Origin: Escherichia coli
GTDB taxonomy: Bacteria; Pseudomonadota; Gammaproteobacteria; Enterobacterales; Enterobacteriaceae
DNA: 64,000 bases
Assembly (NCBI RefSeq): GCF_044324875.1
Contig: NZ_CP172185.1
Reading direction: 5' to 3' (one strand)
This document shows, piece after piece, positions 5,209-64,000 of the stretch. Position 1 is the first letter of the stretch. The number at the start of each line of letters is the position of its first letter. The translations under genes were made by a program, and so were the position numbers. Below the pieces are notes generated by a model that saw nothing but the letters and a program-made list of their open reading frames with translations, made no database searches and was not told the DNA's origin.

Positions 5209-7398
5209 TTAGAAGCGGAAGGTTGCGGTTGCAACGACCTGACGTTCTGCGCCCCAGAAGCAGCCATAGGTCTGGAAGCAACTGGCAACATACTCACGAT
5301 CGAGCAAATTGTTGACGTTCACAGCAAGGCTGGATCCCGCCATACCAAAGCGTGCCAGATCATATTTTACAACAGCATCCATTACAGCTGCGCTACCCAC
5401 TTTAAAAGTGTTTGCCGGATCACCATAGCTGGAACCAATAAAACGACCACCTGTTCCCAATGTTAAACCAGAAAGCGGCCCTTCATTGAAGGTATAATCC
5501 CCCCAGAGAGATGCCATATGCTCCGGTACTTGTTCTGGAGTTTTACCTTTGAGATTGGTGTCTTTGGTGTATTCCGCATCGGTGTAGGTATAAGAAGCCG
5601 TCAAGTTAATATTGGCATTTAACGCCGCTTTAGCTTCAAGTTCCACACCACGAGCGCGAATCTCACCTGCCGGGACTTGCGCTAATGGGTTTGTTGGGTC
5701 TGCTGTCAGGTTATTTGTTTTCGTCAATTGATAGACTGCGCCCGTAACAACGACCGGCATATCATTCGGAACATATTTTACGCCAGCTTCATACTGTTCA
5801 CCTTTCGATGGCTTATAGGAAACGCGCGGGTTGCTCCACAGATCGAAAGCACTCGGTTCAAAGGACTGGCTATAGCTAAAGTAAGGTGAAATACCATTAT
5901 CGAATAAGTAATTTACACCACCGCGCCAGGTGAACTGATGATCATTGCGCTCAATATAACCTTCAGTCGGCGTATAAGAGTTTTCACGAACAGTGGTCGC
6001 TTGCTTAGACCAATCGTAGCGTCCTCCCAGAGTGAATACCCATTTATTCCATTCCGCCTGATCCTGAACATAAATACCTGTTTGTTTGCTTTCATTCATC
6101 TGGTATGGCTCTGCGCTACCAAATGCAAAGTATTCAGGATGGTATTTGTTATAAAGATCGATGGATGGTGCAGATCCAAAGCTGGCATTGATATCATTGC
6201 GCATCCGCATGAAGTCTACCCCTGTCAGCAAAGTATGCCCGACGTCACCTGTAGCAAACTTACTTTCAAGTTGGGTATCAACGCTAAAGTTTTGTAGACG
6301 CTCATTATCCACCACTGTCCCGCGGTTTAGGGTATGACCATCGCTGGCAATCCCTGTGCCATAAACACTTTTCTGTGAGGTTTTCATTTCACTGAAACGC
6401 AGATTCTGACGCACGGTGAAGGTGTCATTAAAACCATGTTCAAAACTATATCCCACCATTTTCTGGTTACGGGAGTATGTATTATTCGATGCACCTTCAT
6501 TGAAATCAGTCGGTAGACGCTTACCATTAGGCAATGGCTCAACGGTCCCCTCTTTCGGCAACCAACCGTAATAACCCGTTTCTGGTTCGTTCTGAAAATA
6601 GGACAGGAAAGTAAAATTGGTTTTGTCGTCTGGACGCCATGAGAATGATGGAGCAATGGTATAACGCTGAGATTCAGAGTTTTTCTGCTGTTCGTTTGTT
6701 GAGCGTGCGAGGCCAGTCAAACGGTAGGAGAACTCACCGTTATCATCCAGCGCATCACTGAAATCGAATCCGGTCTGAAACAGATTATCCGTCCCCATTT
6801 TAAACTGAATTTCTTTCAGGGGTTCAGTTGTCGGACGCTTACTCACCATAGAAATAATCCCACCAGGATTACTTTTCCCATAGAGAACAGACGTCGGCCC
6901 GCGCATCAGTTCAACCCTCTCGAGCATGTAAGGATCAATCACAGCATCGTTATAAAAGTTGCCCTGAAGTTTTAGTCCATCAAGGTAATTATTTTGATTC
7001 AGACCAACAGATGAGAAACCACGAATAATAACAAAATCATATGTATTAGAAGCACCACGACTGCTAACCGTAACGCCAGGTGTATAACCTAATGCTTCTT
7101 TTACAGACTGAAATTGATGCATCTGCATCTCTTCATTTGTCACAACCGAAATAGACTGCGGCGTTTTTTCAATTGGTGTATCCGTTTTAGTCGCAGTAGC
7201 AGAGTGCTTCGCCGCAATAGTTGCAGCTGGCCCCCATGCGCTTTCTTGCGGCGCAGGTGCAGCGGTAACGGTGATAGTGTCTTCTTTCGGTTCAACCGCT
7301 GCCTGTGCATAAACAGACATGCCGCTAACCGCTGTGGCTACTACAACTGCGATTTTACGCAGTGAGTGTTTTGGCTGAGCAGTTTTGGAACGCGCCAT
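5209..7398 (-). CDS. fhuA: TonB-dependent ferrichrome outer-membrane receptor / phage receptor
   Basis: 729-aa ORF; signal peptide MARSKTAQPKHSLRKIAVVVATAVSGMSVYAQA, TonB box DTITV, C-terminal ATATFRF; Fur box upstream. Confidence 0.92.
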   Translation of the reverse strand: MARSKTAQPKHSLRKIAVVVATAVSGMSVYAQAAVEPKEDTITVTAAPAPQESAWGPAATIAAKHSATATKTDTPIEKTPQSISVVTNEEMQMHQFQSVKEALGYTPGVTVSSRGASNTYDFVIIRGFSSVGLNQNNYLDGLKLQGNFYNDAVIDPYMLERVELMRGPTSVLYGKSNPGGIISMVSKRPTTEPLKEIQFKMGTDNLFQTGFDFSDALDDNGEFSYRLTGLARSTNEQQKNSESQRYTIAPSFSWRPDDKTNFTFLSYFQNEPETGYYGWLPKEGTVEPLPNGKRLPTDFNEGASNNTYSRNQKMVGYSFEHGFNDTFTVRQNLRFSEMKTSQKSVYGTGIASDGHTLNRGTVVDNERLQNFSVDTQLESKFATGDVGHTLLTGVDFMRMRNDINASFGSAPSIDLYNKYHPEYFAFGSAEPYQMNESKQTGIYVQDQAEWNKWVFTLGGRYDWSKQATTVRENSYTPTEGYIERNDHQFTWRGGVNYLFDNGISPYFSYSQSFEPSAFDLWSNPRVSYKPSKGEQYEAGVKYVPNDMPVVVTGAVYQLTKTNNLTADPTNPLAQVPAGEIRARGVELEAKAALNANINLTASYTYTDAEYTKDTNLKGKTPEQVPEHMASLWGDYTFNEGPLSGLTLGTGGRFIGSSYGDPANTFKVGSAAVMDAVVKYDLARFGMAGSSLAVNVNNLLDREYVASCFQTYGCFWGAERQVVATATFRF

Positions 7399-10242: not shown

Positions 10243-12672
10243 TCACGAATACTTTTTCGTCCGTCGCGTCGGTGCCGTGTTTGCCGGGTCGTCCGGCCAG
10301 ACGTGTTTGGGATAACGCCCTTTCATCTCCTTTTGCACCTCACGATACGCCCCTTTCCAGAAGGCCCCCAAATCACGCGTGATTTGCAGCGGCCTTTGGG
10401 CAGGGGAAAGCAACTCCAGCACCAGCGGCACGCGCCCCTGGGCGATCGTCGGATTGGTGGCCTCACCAAACATCTCCTGCATTCTCACCGCCAGCGCGGG
10501 CGGGTTATCTTCATGATAACGAATGGCGATCCGGCTTCCCGTCGGCACAGTGTAATGCGCAGGCAATTCACTATCCAGACGTTGCTGCATTCCCCAATCA
10601 AGTAATCCGCGTAGTGCCTGATAAATGTCGAGTGATTTCAGGCCGCGTAGTGAATGCACGCCGCTCATATGCGGCAGTAGCCACGTTTCCAGCGTCGCCA
10701 ACAAACTCTCATCATCAACCGCTGGCCAGTCATATTCCGGCAACCACTTTGCGGCGCATAACAAACGCAAGCGTAGCTGTTCCGCTTCCGCCGTCCAGTT
10801 GAGCACGCTTAAACCTTTATCACGAATGCCGTTAAGCATCGCCTGATGCAACTCGTCTTCCGAGGGTTTCGCCAGTGGCTGCACTTTCACCGTCAACTGA
10901 CCGATTTGCAGCCGACGCCAGGCTTTCAGCGTACCTTGCGCGTCATCCCACTCCACAGTGTCAGACTGCTGTACCAGCTGCGGGCAGCGTTGTACTAACT
11001 CATCAATATCGACCGGCAGCGCCAGTAAAATCCGCGCATCCGGCGAGGCGCTGCCCTGCAATAATAACGGTGCGATCAACCATTCGTGGCGGCTTAGCGC
11101 ATCGTCGGCATCGAGCATCGCCCCCATGCCGTTTGCCAGTTGATAGCGTCCATCTTGCCCACGGCGGCGAGCAATGCGATCGGCAAACGCCCCGGCAAGT
11201 AGCGGCGCGATAAGCGAACTGTCTGCCTCACCGCCGCGTACGTTTAAGCGTTTTAACAGTTGCTGACTACGTTGCTGCCAGGCTGGTTGATTGCGCGAAA
11301 ACGCCACGCCCAGGTCACTATTGCCCATCCGTGGCGGCTCTTCGAGAATGGCGGCAATTTTTGCCGCGGTAGCAGCTTCGTCGTCGCTCTTTGCGCTAAC
11401 CAGCATTGCCGCTAAACGCGGATCGTTACCCAGCGCTGCCATTTTTTGCCCCTGCGCACTAAGCCGTTCACCGTCCAGCGCCCCCAGCATCCGTAACAGG
11501 CGTTTCGCGGCCAGTAGATTCACCGTTGGCGGTTGATCCAGCCAGCTCATCTGCGCCGTATCGCTGCATCCCCATTGCAGTAATTCCATCAGCAAACCGG
11601 AAAGATCGCTTTGTAATATTTCCGGTTCACTTTGCGCCGCGGCGCGTTCGGCTTGTTCTTTGGCGATTAAATGCAGGCAGATACCCGGCTCCAGACGCCC
11701 GGCGCGCCCGGCACGCTGCGTCATGGATGCCTGGCTAACGCGTTGAGTAATCAGTCGCGTAAGCCCCGTGCGCGGATCAAAACGCGCCACACGCTCCTGG
11801 GCACAATCCACCACCAGACGAATACCTTCAATGGTTAAACTGGTTTCAGCAATATTGGTCGCCAGCACCACTTTGCGCATCCCTTGCGGTGCCGGGAGGA
11901 TCGCTTTTCGCTGATCGTTCAGCGACAACGCGCCATACAGCGGGCAGAGCAACACATCACTGCCGATGCGCGAAGCCAGTTGTTCCTGCACACGCTGAAT
12001 TTCTCCGACGCCAGGTAAAAATAACAGTAATGATCCGCTTTCCTGACGCAGTATTTCGGCGGTGGCTACCGCAACGGCTTCGTCAAAACGCTGATGCGCG
12101 GGCAGCGGTAAATAACGGCGTTCAACCGGAAACGAGCGCCCTTCTGAGATGACGACGGGCGCTCCTGGCAGCATTTGCTGCAAGCGGTCGTTGTCCAGCG
12201 TAGCCGACATAATCAGCAGTTTAAGGTCATCACGCAGACCTTGTTGCACATCGAGTAACAGCGCCAACGCCAAATCCGCCTGCAAGCTGCGCTCATGAAA
12301 CTCATCGAGGATCACCAATCCAACACCGCTCAGTTCAGGGTCACGCTGGATCATGCGCGTCAGCACGCCTTCGGTAACCACTTCCAGGCGGGTATTCGGC
12401 CCGACGCAGTTTTGCGCACGCATCCGGTAGCCAACGGTATCGCCTGGCTTTTCGTTAAGCAGCTCCGCCAGCCGTTGCGCAACGTTACGCGCCGCCAGAC
12501 GACGCGGCTCCAGGAGGATAATTTTCCCGTTAATGCCGGGATGCGCCAGCAGTTGCAGCGGCAGCCAGGTTGATTTCCCGGCCCCGGTCGGCGCACTTAA
12601 TAACACCTGCGGTGCACCATCGAGGGCAGCAAGTAACTCAGGTAAGACGGCAGCAACGGGCAACGACGACAC
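10243..12672 (-). CDS. hrpB: ATP-dependent RNA helicase HrpB (DEAH box)
   Basis: Walker A APTGAGKST, DEFH box; probable GTG start at VSSLPVAAV giving 809 aa; the ORF-track ATG lies further upstream. Confidence 0.92.
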   Translation of the reverse strand: MSSLPVAAVLPELLAALDGAPQVLLSAPTGAGKSTWLPLQLLAHPGINGKIILLEPRRLAARNVAQRLAELLNEKPGDTVGYRMRAQNCVGPNTRLEVVTEGVLTRMIQRDPELSGVGLVILDEFHERSLQADLALALLLDVQQGLRDDLKLLIMSATLDNDRLQQMLPGAPVVISEGRSFPVERRYLPLPAHQRFDEAVAVATAEILRQESGSLLLFLPGVGEIQRVQEQLASRIGSDVLLCPLYGALSLNDQRKAILPAPQGMRKVVLATNIAETSLTIEGIRLVVDCAQERVARFDPRTGLTRLITQRVSQASMTQRAGRAGRLEPGICLHLIAKEQAERAAAQSEPEILQSDLSGLLMELLQWGCSDTAQMSWLDQPPTVNLLAAKRLLRMLGALDGERLSAQGQKMAALGNDPRLAAMLVSAKSDDEAATAAKIAAILEEPPRMGNSDLGVAFSRNQPAWQQRSQQLLKRLNVRGGEADSSLIAPLLAGAFADRIARRRGQDGRYQLANGMGAMLDADDALSRHEWLIAPLLLQGSASPDARILLALPVDIDELVQRCPQLVQQSDTVEWDDAQGTLKAWRRLQIGQLTVKVQPLAKPSEDELHQAMLNGIRDKGLSVLNWTAEAEQLRLRLLCAAKWLPEYDWPAVDDESLLATLETWLLPHMSGVHSLRGLKSLDIYQALRGLLDWGMQQRLDSELPAHYTVPTGSRIAIRYHEDNPPALAVRMQEMFGEATNPTIAQGRVPLVLELLSPAQRPLQITRDLGAFWKGAYREVQKEMKGRYPKHVWPDDPANTAPTRRTKKYS

Positions 12673-58468: not shown

Positions 58469-59571
58469 TGGTAATGGCTAACTTAGATAAAGACCTAGGT
58501 TTGAAGCAAGACGCTATAAGGTTTTGCTTGATAAATGGTTACTTGCCATTTTTAGAAGTTAACGTTGAAAACTATAGGGAACTTTCTGATACATCTACAA
58601 TTATAACAGATGTAGATGTTTTAGGGGTTGCTTTTGATATAACTGGAAAAACCAGAAAGATAATTTTCGATTGTAAAACCATTAAAAATACCAGCCCTAT
58701 TAATAGAGCGTTTTGGGCTTCCGGTGTTATGAATTTTTTAGGCTATGATGAAGCATTCATCATATTAAGAAAGAAAGCAAGTGAGGCCCATAGACTTTCC
58801 GCAAAAACAATTAATGTCCACCTTTTTGATGAAGATCAAATGAAAGGATATGCTCAATCATTTTCAATGAATTTCAATATTGATTTAAGCTACTCTACGG
58901 ACATTAATAATTGGATAAGTATACAGGAAGTATATAAAACAGATAAAACCATCCAAAAATATGGCGAATTTTTAGCAAGTTCGGTTCCTACAGAAAATGA
59001 TCCAGCGAAGAATTTGAGAAGATTTATTGCTGCTTTACAAAAAGTGAAGAATGAACTAGACCCTCAAAAAAATAAACACAGAGCAATTTACTTGCATAGT
59101 CTAATGACATTCTCATATATTATGGCATGCTTAGTGCAGCAACTAAGAGGGTTAATTGATTTTGATTATAATCAGAATGAATTCACAAGACTTCTCAAAT
59201 ATTATATCTGGGGAGGGAAGGATAGCTTTATATTAAGACATAAGATGAGAGAACTAATCTCATCTAATGACAGTTCGATTCAAAATATAGAGCCAGAGTT
59301 AAGGAATTGGGATGACTTTATTGAACTCACAAGGAGTCTACTTGACTCTCCTAATGATATAATTAAATGTTGCCATGTGTTACGTGAATTTAGTTTTTTA
59401 GAACTATCCATGCATGACATTAAAAAGGATGAGCAACTATCCACTCTAATTTCAGATAATTCAAGAATTCGTCAATTTATAATGATAATGGCTAGATACT
59501 TAACCAACTCGATGAAAATGCCAAAAGATTTCATTAACGATCTAGTATCAATATTTGATAGATTGAGATAA
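58468..59571 (+). CDS. hypothetical protein, island operon gene B; N-terminal PD-(D/E)xK-like motif
   Basis: 367-aa ORF; TAATG overlap with gene A (alternative ATG at 58474 has GGAG 8 nt upstream); residues 48-70 TDVDVLGVAF...KIIFDCKT fit hD...(D/E)xK. Confidence 0.75.
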   Translation: MVMANLDKDLGLKQDAIRFCLINGYLPFLEVNVENYRELSDTSTIITDVDVLGVAFDITGKTRKIIFDCKTIKNTSPINRAFWASGVMNFLGYDEAFIILRKKASEAHRLSAKTINVHLFDEDQMKGYAQSFSMNFNIDLSYSTDINNWISIQEVYKTDKTIQKYGEFLASSVPTENDPAKNLRRFIAALQKVKNELDPQKNKHRAIYLHSLMTFSYIMACLVQQLRGLIDFDYNQNEFTRLLKYYIWGGKDSFILRHKMRELISSNDSSIQNIEPELRNWDDFIELTRSLLDSPNDIIKCCHVLREFSFLELSMHDIKKDEQLSTLISDNSRIRQFIMIMARYLTNSMKMPKDFINDLVSIFDRLR

Positions 59572-59577
59572 AAAGAA

Positions 59578-59609
59578 GAGCAGGCTCGAATTAAATTTCG
59601 TGCCTGCTC
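59578..59609. terminator. hairpin between convergent gene B and the recombinase gene
   Basis: 13-bp stem gagcaggctcgaa / ttcgtgcctgctc (one mismatch), loop ttaaat; U-rich tail on the minus-strand transcript. Confidence 0.5.
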
Positions 59610-59708
59610 ACCATATAAACAAATGATAATAACTCATTCAACTAGATTATCTTTAATTCAGAGCAGTAATGATTTTCTTAATAACAATTCCCCTTTCTGA
59701 ATCCCATC

Positions 59709-60266
59709 TCAGGAGGCATTCATTTCTTTTTTCACGCGAAACACTGTAGCCCTGCCACAATCGCACAACTTTGCAATCTCATCCGGTGTGTTCTTCCCAG
59801 CTTGAAGCATCTCAATGATTTTACTGTGTAATTCTTTGTTCTTTTGCTTTCCTTTATACTTCTTAGCCTCTTTAGCAAGGGCAATTCCTTCGTTGCGACG
59901 TGATGCGATCATTCCCCGCTCAAATTCTGCAACGGCTCCCATCATGGTTAAGATTAAACGAGATTGTGGGGAGTTATCGAAACTCATTGAGTTAGCAAGG
60001 AACTGAACAGTGATCCCGCGAGCAACGAGGCTATCAATCATTTCCAGCAAATCGCGGGTATTACGTGCAAGGCGATCAATCGAGTGAGTCATGAGCGTAT
60101 CACCTTCGCGGAGGTGTGAAAGCAGGTTCAACAATTCAGGTCTCTCGCTGGTGGACTTACCTGATTCTTTCTCGGTGACGATTTTGTCACAAACAGGTTC
60201 CAGTACTGCCAACTGACGCTCAAGATTCTGATCCTTTGTTGAGACTCTCGCGTAACCAAAAATCAT
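59709..60266 (-). CDS. small serine recombinase (resolvase/invertase family)
   Basis: N-terminal catalytic motif FGYARVSTKDQ with serine nucleophile, C-terminal helix-turn-helix GRATVFRVKKE; start placed at MIFGYARV (ORF-track ATG at 60296 lies inside the dyad sites). Confidence 0.88.
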   Translation of the reverse strand: MIFGYARVSTKDQNLERQLAVLEPVCDKIVTEKESGKSTSERPELLNLLSHLREGDTLMTHSIDRLARNTRDLLEMIDSLVARGITVQFLANSMSFDNSPQSRLILTMMGAVAEFERGMIASRRNEGIALAKEAKKYKGKQKNKELHSKIIEMLQAGKNTPDEIAKLCDCGRATVFRVKKEMNAS

Positions 60267-60288
60267 TTCCCTGCCCTCACCGCTGATA

Positions 60289-60353
60289 AGTATCATTTAA
60301 ATTAACTGAATGATACAGTATCATTTAAATTCTTTCAATGTCTAAATGATACT
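60289..60353. promoter_or_regulatory. tandem dyad-symmetric sites upstream of the recombinase (res/hix-like)
   Basis: Two copies of agtatcatttaaatt (60289-60303, 60317-60331), each paired 11 bp downstream with an inverted half-site (aatgatac 60309-60316; taaatgatact 60343-60353). Confidence 0.6.
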
Positions 60354-60770
60354 AAACGAGACAAGAAAAACGGGTATCGTTAGGGAGTACCCAAAAGAGA
60401 TTTTTGATCGTGCGTTTTTTAGTCAATGTAGGGTTAGTGAAAAGTTCAGTACCGAGATCTGAGTTCACGGCATTTTGTCGACGGGGTTGAACCTGATTAG
60501 GCGAACGAGATTTTAAATCAGGCGGAATAAAACAAGTTGTACTTTTATCTGAGTAAACGATCCCTTTAACTTTTTAGTCAGAAATCGTGATACTAGGGGT
60601 TTGGTTATTTTGTGTCCTTAAGGCCAGTACTTTTAGCGAGGACGAAAAAACGGCCTACATGAGAACGCTTACAGTAACTTAAGTATATTATCCAAAAAGT
60701 CACTTAACTTAAATCAATTTGGATGCAAAATCGCCACACTTTGCAAGTGAACACATACCGGGCAACAAGC

Positions 60771-60796
60771 AAATAAAAAAGGCCACTTTCGCGACC
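60771..60796 (-). terminator. minus-strand intrinsic terminator after the 119-aa gene
   Basis: On the minus transcript GGUCGC-GAAA-GUGGCC (stem with two G-U wobbles) followed by UUUUUUUAUUU; the stem does not form on the plus transcript. Confidence 0.5.
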
Positions 60797-60814
60797 TTGT
60801 ACCAGTACAAACAC

Positions 60815-61174
60815 TCATTCAGAACGATCAAGTACCATATATGCTGGCTGACACATGCTGCCCCGCTCCTGTAGCCAGTAGTAATCAAGATCGGCAACAC
60901 GCACGTCCAATCCAGAATCTACACGGTTGATCTGTAACCGTAGCCCTACAGTATCCTTGTACGATAAACCAGATTTAACATTGTATTTGTACTTAACACC
61001 GTTTTCCTGTTCAAACTGTTTAAGGAAAGGCGTCATTTGTTTCTGAATTTCTTTCAAACAAATAACCTCATTATCAATAGCAAAGGGGGGTTCTGTTTTT
61101 CCATCAGGTACAGCAGCCTGTAAATGAAAGGAAGTACTCAACAATAACAGCATTGCAACAGAAGTCTTTTTCAT
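60815..61174 (-). CDS. hypothetical small secreted protein
   Basis: 119 aa; signal peptide MKKTSVAMLLLLSTSFHLQA then AVP; AAGGAA Shine-Dalgarno; 43 nt downstream of the membrane-protein gene. Confidence 0.7.
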   Translation of the reverse strand: MKKTSVAMLLLLSTSFHLQAAVPDGKTEPPFAIDNEVICLKEIQKQMTPFLKQFEQENGVKYKYNVKSGLSYKDTVGLRLQINRVDSGLDVRVADLDYYWLQERGSMCQPAYMVLDRSE

Positions 61175-61217
61175 TTTAATTCCTTATTAAAGAACAGTAC
61201 ATTATATTTCAATGGAC

Positions 61218-62258
61218 TTAATAACAATATTTTATATTTCCTTCGGGTTTTCTCATGCATTTAATTCCTTCAGGAATATAATCAGTTACGGGAGCAGGTC
61301 TGGCATCAGGTCTTGAAAGACGATTGGATATAGAAGACAACAGACTGAAAACACACTCATTAAATGATTTTTGATATTTATTTTTTTCATAAAAGTACTG
61401 CATGGTGATTTTATCTCTTTCGTATTGCAATTCTTTGCCAAGCTGAATCCTATCCATATCAATTCCATTTCTCATAGCATTAAATCTTTCGTTCAATAAA
61501 TTAAATTGAGATTTATTCCATTCATTTAAAGGAAATAAAGAATTGTTAAGCCTTTGCCTACAATTAGATTGCTCGATAGCTGACATGTATTCTTTCATAC
61601 TAACGCCAATATCTAAGTATGTGAGTTGTCCAGCAGTTCTATCAACTGAGTTATTAGGGTAAGATTTAATTTCAGTAAGTATTGACTCTGTTAATACTGC
61701 ATTTTCTTCTAAATCTTTGCTAATAGTTATTTGAGCTTGTTCTCTTTTATCCTTATCAAATATTGAAATGTATTTCTTTACTATATCCTGATTAGCTTTC
61801 TCGGCTGCTACTAACGCATCTTGAACCTTCTTTTCCGCCGCTTTAACTCGTTGTTCTTCTACAAATTTCGCGTAGTCATCAGTATTTGTAATGTGATTTT
61901 CACGAGCGATAGAAAACTCTTTACTATCTTTAAAACCAAGTTTTTGTGCTCTGGCTCCATCGCTTGAAGATCGGGCAGAACTTGCCACGAAAGCGAGCAC
62001 AATGATCAGTACAGGAACCGTATAATTATTAACGAGTTTATAGGGTAAGAACTTCGCTTTAAGCGTACCATAACCCAAAACAGCCCAGCCTATCGCGGCA
62101 GTACTTGCCAGTAGCTGGCACAATCCAGCGACGGAAAGCATGATTACCGACCAGAAGCCTGTACCGACTGCGAAAAGATCACCAAATTTCTCCATTGACG
62201 CAAGGAATAAAAACACTCCCCAAATGCCATAAAATCCTATTTTCAAATATTTACTCAC
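61218..62258 (-). CDS. hypothetical membrane protein with coiled-coil-like soluble domain
   Basis: 346 aa, probable GTG start after AGGA; three hydrophobic segments in the first ~95 residues, then a charged Lys/Glu-rich region. Confidence 0.7.
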   Translation of the reverse strand: MSKYLKIGFYGIWGVFLFLASMEKFGDLFAVGTGFWSVIMLSVAGLCQLLASTAAIGWAVLGYGTLKAKFLPYKLVNNYTVPVLIIVLAFVASSARSSSDGARAQKLGFKDSKEFSIARENHITNTDDYAKFVEEQRVKAAEKKVQDALVAAEKANQDIVKKYISIFDKDKREQAQITISKDLEENAVLTESILTEIKSYPNNSVDRTAGQLTYLDIGVSMKEYMSAIEQSNCRQRLNNSLFPLNEWNKSQFNLLNERFNAMRNGIDMDRIQLGKELQYERDKITMQYFYEKNKYQKSFNECVFSLLSSISNRLSRPDARPAPVTDYIPEGIKCMRKPEGNIKYCY

Positions 62259-62479
62259 CGCAATTATCCTTTAATAATTTTCCAAATCGATGGTTCGTTC
62301 TATTTGTATTATCGACAATAATTCGTTTGCCTTTAGGTAGATCCCTTAAAAAGGAATCCCCCCAAAATTTATAGATTAGCAGTTGTACCACTCTCACTGT
62401 TTTGTCACTCCCATTATCTTCTCTCAGGTCAAAAGTACGGACTTAAAGCCGTCCGTGTTCAGGTGCTCAAGAGTAGCAC

Positions 62480-62590
62480 GCATATCAATAAATGATCGAT
62501 AAAAACGATCAATTAATGGATTATTGATTGCTATAATCGATCAATTACTATTAATTCAATACAAATCAATAGGTAAAATCGATCAAGAGG
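62480..62590. repeat. iteron-like direct repeats, GATC-rich
   Basis: Three copies of a-atcgatcaa at 62503-62513, 62535-62545, 62577-62587 and two longer atcaata...atcgat units; several GATC sites. Confidence 0.6.
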
Positions 62591-62754
62591 ATTCGTCATC
62601 CATGAAAGGGGTTATGTATCTGATTTCAATACAGGGAGTATTAGCGATACCATCACGCAAACGCTCTTAAAGCGTAGCTACGGCGTTTTGTAGGGTTTTG
62701 GTCATTCATGTGTGTCAGTAATGAACATCGCATTCAGGGGCTTCCTGTGCGTTT

Positions 62755-63241
62755 TGTCCGAAACACCATCATGAAGGGGGACAGATCGGATCGGGGTCGC
62801 TTCGCTCTGGTCAGTACTGGATAGTTCTTTTCCAGTAACTGAAACCGCAGATCCCCCACTAAGTACACAAAGGAATCAGTAGTATAATAAGTAATTAAAT
62901 AGCAATCAGTTATGTACTGAATGACAGAACAGAAAAACGCGATTGGTTCGCTCTGCCAGTGACTGAAAGGAACGAAGCAGTAGAACCTAATCCAGCGAAC
63001 AGTACACGCAAAGCGGGTACTGTTTAATTGTTTTATCTATGTAAACAATGGGATAGCTATCAAGTACTCACTGCGTGAGCACTCTCACTAACTACCCGAA
63101 ACAGTTCGCTTGCTTCGCCGCTCCTACTTTCAGGTAGTTAATTCGCTTTCGCTCGTTGTGATGTCCGAAATTTATTACCTATAGTATTATAAGGTATTAT
63201 TTTCCGGACATTTATGTATTTTTATGATGGTGTTCTGGACA
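62755..63241. repeat. 18-bp imperfect inverted repeat pair flanking ~450 bp of motif-rich non-coding DNA
   Basis: tgtccgaaacaccatcat (62755-62772) against the reverse complement of atgatggtgttctggaca (63224-63241), 16 of 18 matching; interior holds CAGT-N-ACTG palindromes and ttcgctctg repeats. Confidence 0.6.
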
Positions 63242-64000
63242 TCATTTTTTGCTTTTTTGTACTTCCTTTTCGTATTTGTTCCACATAGCCTTTTGCTCTT
63301 CGGGACTGAGTGCTGTATTACCACTGGCAAGAAACACCTTGAACGCTTCTAACTCAAGCCCTGGGTTGTGGCTTTTCCAGCGGCGAAAACGCTTAGCGTG
63401 ATTATCATCAAGAGTGAAACGCTTTTGCTTATTCTTTGAACCTTGCGGCCTGCCTCTCGACCTCTGCTCATCATCAATACCGATATCTATATACTCAATA
63501 TTATCTGTAAGAGATCTGGCTTGCCATTCATCAAAAACATAAACAGTCTGTGTTTCAGTACTGTCAAAATCCCTTGAAATTCCTCGTAGTACGAACTGGT
63601 GTAAACTTTCGTACTCCCTCGCAACATGTATCGCCTCGCCGTCAATCTCAAAGAACAATTCGCACTGTTTAGCCTCTGTTTCAGAGGGACGCATACAAGC
63701 GAGCCAGACGCACGTGAGCAAGTGTTGGTACTGGTTAAATCCTCTGGCATCCGGGCTTATCTCTGTGCCGTTCCTTAGGCTCTGAGAATCGCTTTTGTTC
63801 TTCGTCCAGTAGAAATCCTGCCCCTCAAGTTTCTCATCAATAAATGAGTATATTTTTTGTACTTTATCAGGGTTGTTAGTCTTCCATGTCTTTGATAGTT
63901 TGTTGTTTTTTGAGAAGTAATAAACTTTTAATCTGTTTTTGAGTTCAGTTTTTCGTGTCAGTAATCCTTCAAGTTCAGTACTTTCAAAGAGTTCTTTATT
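63242..64000 (-). CDS. hypothetical protein, 5'-truncated by the window end
   Basis: My translation finds the frame of the 159-aa track ORF open for all 93 upstream codons to position 64000 (at least 252 aa); C-terminus has AT-hook-like RGRPQGSKNK. Confidence 0.6.
   Translation of the reverse strand, partial: NKELFESTELEGLLTRKTELKNRLKVYYFSKNNKLSKTWKTNNPDKVQKIYSFIDEKLEGQDFYWTKNKSDSQSLRNGTEISPDARGFNQYQHLLTCVWLACMRPSETEAKQCELFFEIDGEAIHVAREYESLHQFVLRGISRDFDSTETQTVYVFDEWQARSLTDNIEYIDIGIDDEQRSRGRPQGSKNKQKRFTLDDNHAKRFRRWKSHNPGLELEAFKVFLASGNTALSPEEQKAMWNKYEKEVQKSKK

Follow-up and report, generated by a model that had tools for sequence, protein, structure and literature searches.

A gene-free kilobase in an Escherichia coli genomic island combines a putative promoter/operator region with a conserved, hairpin-rich element linked to a helicase gene

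The 64,000-nucleotide stretch of Escherichia coli contig NZ_CP172185.1 analysed here (hereafter, the window) contains about one kilobase (positions 62259–63241) that lies beside a gene for a 477-amino-acid (aa) helicase and, as an earlier note on this DNA had stated, holds no open reading frame (ORF) of at least 60 aa wholly within it. What might such a gene-free kilobase do? The earlier note, made from the letters alone, had offered an origin or operator cluster, a decayed small element or a structured RNA. Our analysis bears the note out in part: the region is composite, and each reading suits another section of it. All the motifs that the note lists were recovered at their given positions and are commoner than chance would predict. 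The kilobase is built as a four-part mosaic, sister islands sharing different sub-segments of it, and it sits in a ~9.5-kb island that splits ppdD. Its right half is a conserved, hairpin-rich element of 487 bp, here termed module D, and its left half carries two outward promoter motifs around GATC-rich repeats. We tentatively favour the reading that the kilobase joins a promoter/operator hub to a DNA-level site cognate to the helicase, i.e., a replication or priming origin. When searched with BLASTN, as had been proposed for a recurring module, the kilobase recurred in E. coli, in other genera and in metagenomes. The loci compared below, labelled L001 to L054, comprise sister islands, metagenome loci and remote relatives.

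Module D spans positions 62755–63241 on the minus strand and is bounded by inverted arms of 18–21 bp (TGTCCRGAACACCATCAT). It is non-coding: in the 29 relatives compared, the longest ORF measures anywhere from 17 to 86 aa, and the variable columns lack three-base periodicity (80/80/87). Joint folding of 29 distinct sequences with RNAalifold gave z-scores, relative to column shuffles, of -14.0 on the helicase-sense (minus) strand and -12.9 on the plus strand, with energies of -67.5 and -59.7, respectively. Single-sequence DNA folds of D yielded z-scores of -7.2 and -6.3, and the neighbouring unit C scored about 0 by the same alignment-based method. The consensus fold comprises 79 pairs, 98% paired, of which seven are changed on both sides, compared with 2.8 ± 1.0 in shuffled and 2–4 in slid controls; the sequences are 81% identical on average and therefore offer little power to detect covariation. 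When the comparison was restricted to helices predicted on both strands, which removes the bias of one-strand prediction, 15 G.U and 6 A.C cells were counted, a difference that does not point clearly to either strand and would be expected of DNA palindromes. The analysis thus shows the non-coding DNA to be a genuine element under selection and not spacer. A search of Rfam 15 at permissive thresholds with 9 kb and 1.1 kb of sequence returned nothing credible (best match in the region, IS102, 21 bits vs a threshold of 46), and no conserved promoter or terminator brackets D.

Module D stands out among the four parts and is linked to the neighbouring helicase gene. The 3′ part of this gene occupies positions 63242–64000 on the minus strand, and the gene runs to 64675 in the record, past the window end. 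Its product, which bears the annotation 'type III restriction Res subunit / DEAD-DEAH helicase', shows an XPD/DinG fold, an invariant GRPxG motif, which we take to resemble an AT-hook, and a C-terminal helical domain; a profile search gathered 868 representatives of the family. A protein-blind scan of metagenomes with the D-core motif identified 25 loci, and in all 23 whose contig extends far enough to be evaluated the helicase gene stands beside D in the same orientation. Moreover, in loci anchored on the 119-aa protein that is encoded further along the island, D was present only if the helicase was present. Module D and the helicase gene are inherited together, with perfect co-occurrence in the cases examined. 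Three remote helicase relatives were also inspected, all encoded just downstream of a large serine recombinase. In two of the three, the helicase gene is followed by 730–880 bp of gene-free, hairpin-rich DNA (z-scores of -5.0 and -5.4), and one remote gap ends in GATCAAT-type repeats; the architecture is thus old.

The anatomy of module D is dominated by palindromes and hairpins. The inverted pair reported in the earlier note is real and slightly longer than claimed, with 21-nucleotide (nt) arms that are 86% complementary (inverted-repeat family I4). The far arm, TGTCCGAAACACCATCATGAA (62755–62775, plus strand), is kept in Morganella, Rouxiella and Pectobacterium and occurs alone in helicase-less islands, and the near arm, TGTCCAGAACACCATCATAAA (63221–63241, minus strand), begins directly after the helicase stop codon and lies beside the helicase gene in nearly all helicase-bearing loci, including Providencia. 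Positions 5–7 of the arms vary without compensating changes. Inward of the near arm lies a 51-bp palindrome, ATGTCCGGAAAATAATACCT-N11-AGGTAATAAATTTCGGACAT (63161–63211, family I5), which together with the two arms provides four TGTCCRRAA sites, the inner pair being TGTCCGRAA. Its arms are conserved and its centre is variable; a TATAAT in that centre was considered as a promoter and rejected, since the centre is not conserved. The metagenome sequence L029 carries a tandem duplication of the 34-bp TGTCC unit/inner palindrome, and the remote relative L053 an analogous TGTCTC...GAGACA palindrome.

Three further hairpins follow. H1 (63089–63141, minus strand), of about 20 bp, has a GCGAAGC tip (within 63108–63119), with GCGAAAGC just 5′ of it at 63145–63152; its helices (3 and 4) are paired in 99–100% of cells, and two of its pairs are changed on both sides. 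The tip varies only as GAA, GAGA or GAAA, and in Providencia the equivalent position is taken by another long hairpin. H2, GAGTGCTCAC-GCA-GTGAGTACTT (63062–63084, minus strand; helix 6), is paired in 99% of cells, and its loop varies only as GCA, GTA, GAA or GGAA. H3, AACAGTAC...GTACTGTT (62998–63024, family I12), shows one compensatory change (L021) and, in about 15 sequences, a minus-strand C.A that would be a plus-strand G.U. Loop variants of block C are GAA or GGA, and across relatives the hairpin loops stay within G-N-A / G-N-N-A.

The remainder of D carries the two direct units that the earlier note had described. They are real (repeat families D5 and D6, spaced 124 and 146 bp apart), lie at 62945–62965 and 62795–62841 on the minus strand, and consist of CAGT-N-ACTG followed by CAGAGCGAA, degenerate in both cases, flanking a stretch of higher A+T content. 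The small palindromes CAGTACTG, CAGTAACTG and CAGTGACTG were found as described, at 62812, 62833 and 62957, and their echo, ACAGTAAATTACTGT, at the ppdD junction (56813–56827). Three CAGT-N0-2-ACTG palindromes compare with 0.03 expected in first-order Markov simulations of the region, a count reached by 0 of 2000 simulations. By the same simulations, AGTAC/GTACT is also enriched (9 vs 1.7 expected, P=0.0005), as is TGTCC/GGACA (5 vs 1.3), and AGCGAA/TTCGCT occurs six times where 0.6 would be expected from the rest of the window. The Providencia counterpart of the direct units is a tandem repeat of 198–200 bp with 90–94% matches, present in 1.9, ~2.5 and 4.0 copies and located downstream of the helicase gene (L049, 5208–6002; L051, 5590–5966; L019, ~6650–7150), so that the gene-free gap there is 0.9–1.5 kb long.

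The tips of the hairpins provide a further clue to the nature of D. As DNA, mini-hairpins of the GCGNAGC type have exceptional stability, far above that of their RNA counterparts, and they have been described at the primase sites/complementary-strand origins of G4, St-1 and alpha3, at RSF1010 ssiA and at N4 hairpin promoters (PMC13037366). Module D contains three such motifs (GCGAAAGC and two GCGAAGC) where 0.12 would be expected (P=0.0002), all of them on the helicase-sense strand. The mean across the family is 2.55 vs 0.72; the Providencia loci have 2/0, 7/0 and 2/0, their units being GCGAGAGC and GCGTTAGC on the helicase-sense strand only.

The left half of the kilobase differs in kind. Part A is a 48-codon ORF on the minus strand (62251–62397), which we read as the remnant of a cro-like HTH_35 gene, of which it represents the C-terminal third; the second half of the ORF product resembles the HTH_35 C-terminus. 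The HTH_35 protein of L012 has PKGERIIADF where positions 62311–62346 encode PKGKRIIVD (tblastn, E 0.007, with a tiny database); the frame and position are those of the intact cro-like gene in L012 and L022, and the stop codon runs into the GTG at 62258 with which the membrane-protein gene begins, an overlap that the intact gene shows too. Descent from a known gene, which the earlier note had named as grounds for abandoning its proposal, holds for the HTH_35 C-terminus at 62311–62346 only, with no other protein similarity in the region; likewise, its decayed small element is borne out for the left ~140 bp and not for the 487-bp module, which is no decayed transposon because it is single-copy and always beside the helicase gene. 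A tblastn search with the CI protein of sister islands detected no CI relic in the region.

Upstream of the relic, a motif scan revealed a leftward extended -10 promoter motif, TGCTACTCT (62470–62478, minus strand). Its TGnTAnnnT pattern is kept in 9/9 variants (the window, L002, L003, L004, L006, L007, L008, L009 and Providencia L019); in the last it reads TGGTATAAT and is followed by a Shine-Dalgarno sequence and the next gene. Just downstream lies a leader hairpin, ACGGAC-N8-GTCCGT followed by ACUUUUGA (62429–62456, minus strand), which is kept in the alignment with one compensatory change (GCGGAT/ATCCGT in L009) and which, as far as its sequence tells, looks like an attenuator or terminator. 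Transcription from the leftward promoter would cover the relic ORF and the genes for the 346-aa membrane protein and the 119-aa secreted protein. In the opposite direction, the same scan found a rightward extended -10 motif, TGCTATAAT (62529–62537, plus strand), and a TATAAT-like hexamer (TATAAT, TATAAA, CATAAT or TAATAT) is present in most variants.

Between and over these motifs lies part B, the GATC/GATCAAT repeat block (62486–62590; families D2, D3 and I1). Two of the three copies of ATCGATCAA noted earlier are exact (62536–62544 and 62578–62586), the third matching at 8/9 positions (62504–62512), and the GATC-rich block was confirmed, with sites starting at 62494, 62507, 62539 and 62581; the whole region has 8 GATC vs 3.8 expected (P=0.04). 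Block B is the most widely retained piece of the kilobase, found in every variant, including helicase-less L004, L013, L018 and L011 and Providencia L019 and L051, and in the remote relative L054 its counterpart consists of ATCAATAG repeats. The equivalent slot of sister islands L012, L014 and L022 holds CI/Cro. In the Pectobacterium/Phytobacter/Rahnella islands the slot holds a LexA-like CI repressor (HTH_3 + Peptidase_S24), and in sister islands CI is divergent from the cro-like gene, with a ~90-bp operator region between them. On the basis of the two outward motifs, the CI/Cro slot and the wide retention, block B is best read as a putative divergent promoter/operator, and its GATC density suggests that it may be under Dam or SeqA control. 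The 'origin or operator cluster' of the earlier note thus divides in two: an operator fits the GATC/GATCAAT block between the two promoters, and an origin is a plausible candidate reading of 62755–63241.

Part C is a short rightward unit (62545–62757, plus strand) in the position of the CI gene in sister islands, with terminator-like hairpins at 62658–62701 and 62735–62757 (terminator-like site at 62735–62747). It contains a 22-codon small ORF (62602–62670, plus strand) that was rejected as a small protein or type I toxin, given that its start is lost in L010 and its frame is cut short in L009 and runs on past the stop in L007. For 62545–62760, a structured small RNA was also discarded, there being no conserved fold (RNAalifold z-scores of +1.0 and -0.3). 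The most conserved block of the kilobase, ~90 bp at 62733–62819, straddles parts C and D and includes the terminator hairpin, the far arm, a GCGAAGC (minus strand, 62799–62805) and CAGTACTG (62812–62819). It is nearly invariant in all variants, helicase-less L004, L007 and L013 included, and the homology between the window and L004 stops exactly at CAGTACTG.

We propose that the left half (62251–62757) would be a transcription switch that replaced the CI/Cro module. Two back-to-back extended -10 promoters would lie inside GATC/GATCAAT operator repeats, possibly sensitive to Dam methylation; the leftward one would fire through the attenuator-like hairpin and the cro relic into the membrane/secreted-protein operon, and the rightward one into a short terminated unit in the slot of the LexA-like CI. 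Module D would act in cis, as DNA, and be cognate to the XPD/DinG-like helicase encoded beside it; it would be built as an array of protein-binding half-sites (four TGTCCRRAA plus CAGT-N-ACTG/AGCGAA units) and of strand-specific hairpins capped by very stable GCGNAGC/GCGNNAGC mini-hairpins. After excision of the island, the helicase may be loaded at D and DNA synthesis primed there, making D an origin or a single-strand initiation site. Of this picture, the composite anatomy, the conservation, the helicase linkage, the wealth of hairpins and the promoter motifs are observed, and the operator role, Dam control, helicase loading and replication are our interpretation. The changes in repeat copy number (198 bp in Providencia, 34 bp in L029) and the mini-hairpin tips argue for a site acting as DNA. 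In phage-inducible islands the origin lies just 3′ of the rep gene; D likewise adjoins the helicase gene, is co-inherited with it and contains repeated iteron-like motifs.

Several observations weigh against this proposal. Concerning the promoters, a generic promoter scan found few, and both of those described above are motif matches only. Concerning an origin, the sole 40-bp window with at least 80% A+T starts at 62539, in block B and not in D; no IHF consensus was found, and the best DnaA-like boxes have two mismatches and lie outside D. The island contains no primase or recognised initiator, and the protein partner of D falls into none of the known classes of initiator (Rep, primase-helicase or RepA); XPD/DinG-like helicases of superfamily 2 (SF2) are not known to serve as initiators. 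None of 14 whole metagenome contigs is circular, and neither the helicase nor D is present in any plasmid or phage of the collections searched; in tblastn searches of phages and plasmids, the helicase gave only ~20%-identical matches, in an Agrobacterium jumbo phage and two alphaproteobacterial plasmids. D is ~83% identical between islands whose helicases are only 54% identical, which is odd for a co-evolving initiator and origin. Among the remote relatives, L052 (6882–8159) lacks the gap, a 186-aa gene overlapping the helicase end, and the strand bias of the mini-hairpins fails in L053 (1 sense vs 4 antisense; 2 and 1 in L054). Finally, the seven covarying pairs vs 2.8 and the G.U pairs of H1 and H2 fit an RNA equally well.

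This last point leads to the strongest rival, which we nevertheless consider doubtful: D would encode a structured minus-strand RNA of ~480 nt, either as the 3′ untranslated region of the helicase mRNA or as a processed non-coding RNA, that works with or regulates the helicase, the arms forming its closing helix. D is co-directional with the helicase gene, begins at its stop codon and is perfectly linked to it. The consensus fold, its double-changed pairs and its slightly better minus-strand energy would all suit an RNA, as would the minus-strand G.U pairs of H1 and H2 and the GNRA-type loops (GAAA, GAGA and GGAA). Nevertheless, the plus strand folds nearly as well, the shared helices hold both G.U and A.C cells in the numbers given above, H3 favours the plus strand, and positions 5–7 of the arms are uncompensated. 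Furthermore, D is not delimited by a conserved promoter or terminator and matches no Rfam family, and its 198-bp variable-number repeats and GTTA/GNA loops are more typical of DNA (PMC13037366). The structured RNA of the earlier note is dismissed for 62545–62760, and for 62755–63241 the data point neither way, both strands folding equally and covariation being modest. A broader idea, which we rate as somewhat less probable still, is that the helicase and D form an undescribed two-part machine, either a helicase guided or regulated by a structured RNA or an SF2 helicase loaded on extruded, mini-hairpin-capped hairpins. In its new-origin version, such a machine might also let the island sense or exploit the primase or the hairpin-promoter RNA polymerase of an infecting phage.

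An unlikely alternative is that D is another cis-acting transfer signal, an oriT or packaging site, used by a conjugative element or helper phage. Conjugative plasmids typically have single-strand initiation hairpins in their leading regions, and inverted and direct repeats abound at oriT and pac sites. The movement of such islands has been described as unclear (PMC10121019), and many genomic islands carry only an oriT (bioRxiv 10.64898/2026.01.13.699239). Against this, D had no match in 72,556 plasmids (PLSDB, E<=0.01), where only 21–37-nt chance matches appeared at E<=10, nor in 50,697 phages (BLASTN) or in IMG/VR (exact core-motif scan), which argues against a copied cos, pac or oriT. Within E. 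coli genomes only sister islands match, the island has neither relaxase nor terminase, and the strict coupling to the helicase would be left unexplained.

More improbable is that D is an invertible switch or res-like site of the small serine recombinase, with the arms as crossover sites. The inverted arms flank 445 bp, every island encodes such a recombinase (PHROG DNA invertase, 7e-59; Mpi-family match), a ~10-kb segment is flipped between two sister islands, and TGTCCG followed by an A/T-rich stretch presumably resembles resolvase half-sites. D has, however, a single orientation in 48/48 full-length E. coli matches (single collinear pieces) and in 29/29 distinct sequences from seven genera and metagenomes, helicase-less islands keep the recombinase but only the far arm, and the ends of the 10-kb segment are 145-bp inverted repeats of different sequence. 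Binding of the recombinase at the TGTCC sites was rejected, since its gene has its own, different upstream palindrome, AATGATAC-AG-TATCATT. Least probable of all is that the region, unannotated and with a cro-like relic in its left 140 bp, is spacer or former coding sequence without a function: among the sister-island proteins compared by tblastn (CI, cro-like and others), only the cro C-terminus was matched, so that a pseudogene outside the relic was rejected, and D, with no periodicity or conserved ORF, is conserved across genera at least as well as the flanking helicase gene, folds with extreme z-scores and keeps its architecture even in remote relatives.

Beyond the kilobase, the 8-bp palindrome CAGTACTG shows a pattern of its own. 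It typically occurs in 3–9 copies per ~10-kb island and almost never in the flanks (at 60201, 62812 and 63556 in the window); among loci L002–L022, L014 and L016 have one copy and L017 and L021 none. CAGTAC|GTACTG occurs 18 times in window positions 60000–64000 vs ~2 per 4 kb elsewhere. The copies of CAGTACTG lie in coding and non-coding DNA and at different positions in divergent helicase genes, a placement that suggests selection on the DNA motif itself.

The island in which the kilobase resides carries, in minus-strand order, genes for a 520-aa large serine recombinase, the 477-aa helicase, the gene-free kilobase, a 346-aa membrane protein (61218–62258, minus strand, GTG start at 62258), the 119-aa protein, which has a signal peptide and is encoded downstream of the membrane-protein gene, and a small invertase-type serine recombinase (59709–60296, minus strand). 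Window positions 62200–63300 match NZ_CP076645.1 at 100% by BLASTN. Both ppdD junctions bear a 12–13-bp direct repeat, ATGGTGGTYATT (window 56799–56827; L001 16150–16212), and AACAGTAAA motifs lie just inside both island ends; junction repeats and AACAGTAAA presumably represent the att halves on which the large serine recombinase acts. Two cargo genes (428 and 367 aa) occupy 57182–59571 on the plus strand at ~32% G+C. Searches of PADLOC, PHROGs and NCBIfam with all island proteins gave no significant match for the two cargo proteins (one weak PADLOC match, E ~0.009) and assigned neither a defence system nor a function to them, to the helicase, to the membrane protein or to the 119-aa protein. 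As the equivalent slot in sister islands holds known defence genes, the two cargo genes are candidates for an undescribed defence system.

Between the cargo and recombinase genes, positions 59566–59659 (minus strand) gave a weak Rfam match to the L20 leader (24 bits vs a threshold of 58.7); the site is a G+C-rich hairpin plus U-run and most likely a terminator between them. Directly upstream of the small recombinase gene (60297–60345) lie a palindrome, TGAATGATACAGTATCATTTAAAT, and a third copy of AAATGATAC, which, judged by its sequence, is probably the recombinase's own binding or res-like site.

Megablast detected the kilobase in 54, and blastn in 84, of 5426 complete E. coli genomes, chromosomal in every case and in one or two copies per genome. 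Relatives were found in Raoultella, Phytobacter, Citrobacter, Rahnella, Pantoea, Morganella, Rouxiella, Pectobacterium, Providencia and metagenomes. The islands occupy ffs/ybaA with a tyrosine integrase, or yggR/yggS, ybhA and ppdD with large serine recombinases; their common components are the small serine recombinase, the 119-aa protein and the N-terminal half of the membrane protein, as well as, in most cases, the helicase, and they differ in cargo (STAND ATPase, SMODS+SLATT, HNH, DUF4326, KAP NTPase, methyltransferase and reverse transcriptase). The family consists of integrase/recombinase-only islands with defence-type cargo, spread across Enterobacterales, on a backbone of integrase, XPD/DinG-like helicase, 0.5–1.5 kb of hairpin-rich non-coding DNA, GATC operator, membrane/secreted-protein operon, cargo and small serine recombinase. 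The remote relative L052 adjoins a type II secretion ATPase gene, as in ppdD-hofB, and carries reverse-transcriptase (RVT_1) cargo.

Some island copies appear to be decaying, as IS3-family insertions disrupt the helicase gene in L006 (10451–11613) and the tyrosine integrase gene in L004 (12692–13920) and L007 (12419–13581). In ffs-type islands, a ~10-kb segment that runs from DUF2188 to a 51-aa gene and includes the kilobase is bounded by a perfect ~145-bp inverted repeat (L002, ~2068–2215 and ~12160–12310; L009, 3269 and 12005), which contains a core resembling the ffs 3′ end and the tandem palindromes GTAGTACTAC and ACAGTACTGT. This segment is flipped relative to int/ffs between strains S1-SRB-02-B and SBF45.

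Small E. coli anti-phage islands with only integrases or recombinases are common, and the literature treats their movement as an open question, the mobilisation of 'integrase-only' defence islands having been described as unclear (PMC10121019). With its shared backbone and differing defence-type cargo, the present family matches those islands, and its shared small serine recombinase fits the link between such recombinases and defence genes reported in PMC12632615. The analysis defines a conserved backbone for one such family and provides three handles on it: a site that may serve as an origin or for helicase loading, a putative promoter switch in place of an SOS-responsive CI repressor, and a diagnostic sequence signature with which to detect such islands. 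Were D to act as an origin together with an SF2 helicase, or as the RNA partner of that helicase, it would represent a new type of replication or regulatory module in mobile elements; a two-part helicase–D machine, in either version, would explain the amplification and spread of the islands. The combination of an XPD/DinG-like SF2 helicase with a 0.5–1.5-kb array of mini-hairpin-capped hairpins, as part of the backbone of islands with defence cargo, was not found in Rfam, Pfam-annotated systems, PADLOC, phage and plasmid collections or the searchable literature.

Among known systems, the rep-ori modules of SaPI/PICI and the RepA-ori of Vibrio PLE, reportedly set out in Ubeda et al. 2007 and Barth et al. 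2020, come close. There too an integrative island carries a helicase-type gene followed directly by non-coding short repeats around A+T-rich DNA, and gene and site behave as one swappable module. Unlike those systems, the helicase here is SF2 and XPD/DinG-like, not an SF3/D5-type Rep or RepA_N; primase and capsid- or packaging-interference genes are absent, and long hairpins and inverted arms dominate the candidate site. The hairpin tips (GCGAAAGC, GCGAAGC, GCGGAGC, GCGAGAGC and GCGTTAGC), mostly on one strand, recall the G4/St-1/alpha3 origins, RSF1010 ssiA/ssiB and the N4 promoters (PMC13037366), whereas D forms a ~0.5-kb array in a chromosomal island with no known single-stranded stage, cognate primase or phage RNA polymerase. 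As in hin, fimS and the Bacteroides Mpi invertons, inverted repeats of 18–21 bp flank ~450 bp and the island encodes an invertase-family recombinase, but D has one orientation (48 genomes, 29 distinct sequences) and its arms follow the helicase and not the recombinase gene. The left half resembles lambda CI/Cro in its back-to-back promoters ~50 bp apart, its operator-like repeats and its exact CI|Cro slot; it differs in that this variant lacks a repressor gene and retains the cro-like gene only as a relic. Its 4–6 GATC sites within 100 bp are reminiscent of Dam/GATC promoters (IS10, pap) and of GATC-rich origins (P1 oriR, oriC). As judged from sequence, the parts of the kilobase thus resemble known kinds, namely a promoter/operator switch, an initiator-linked origin and single-strand initiation hairpins, and it is their combination that appears to be new.

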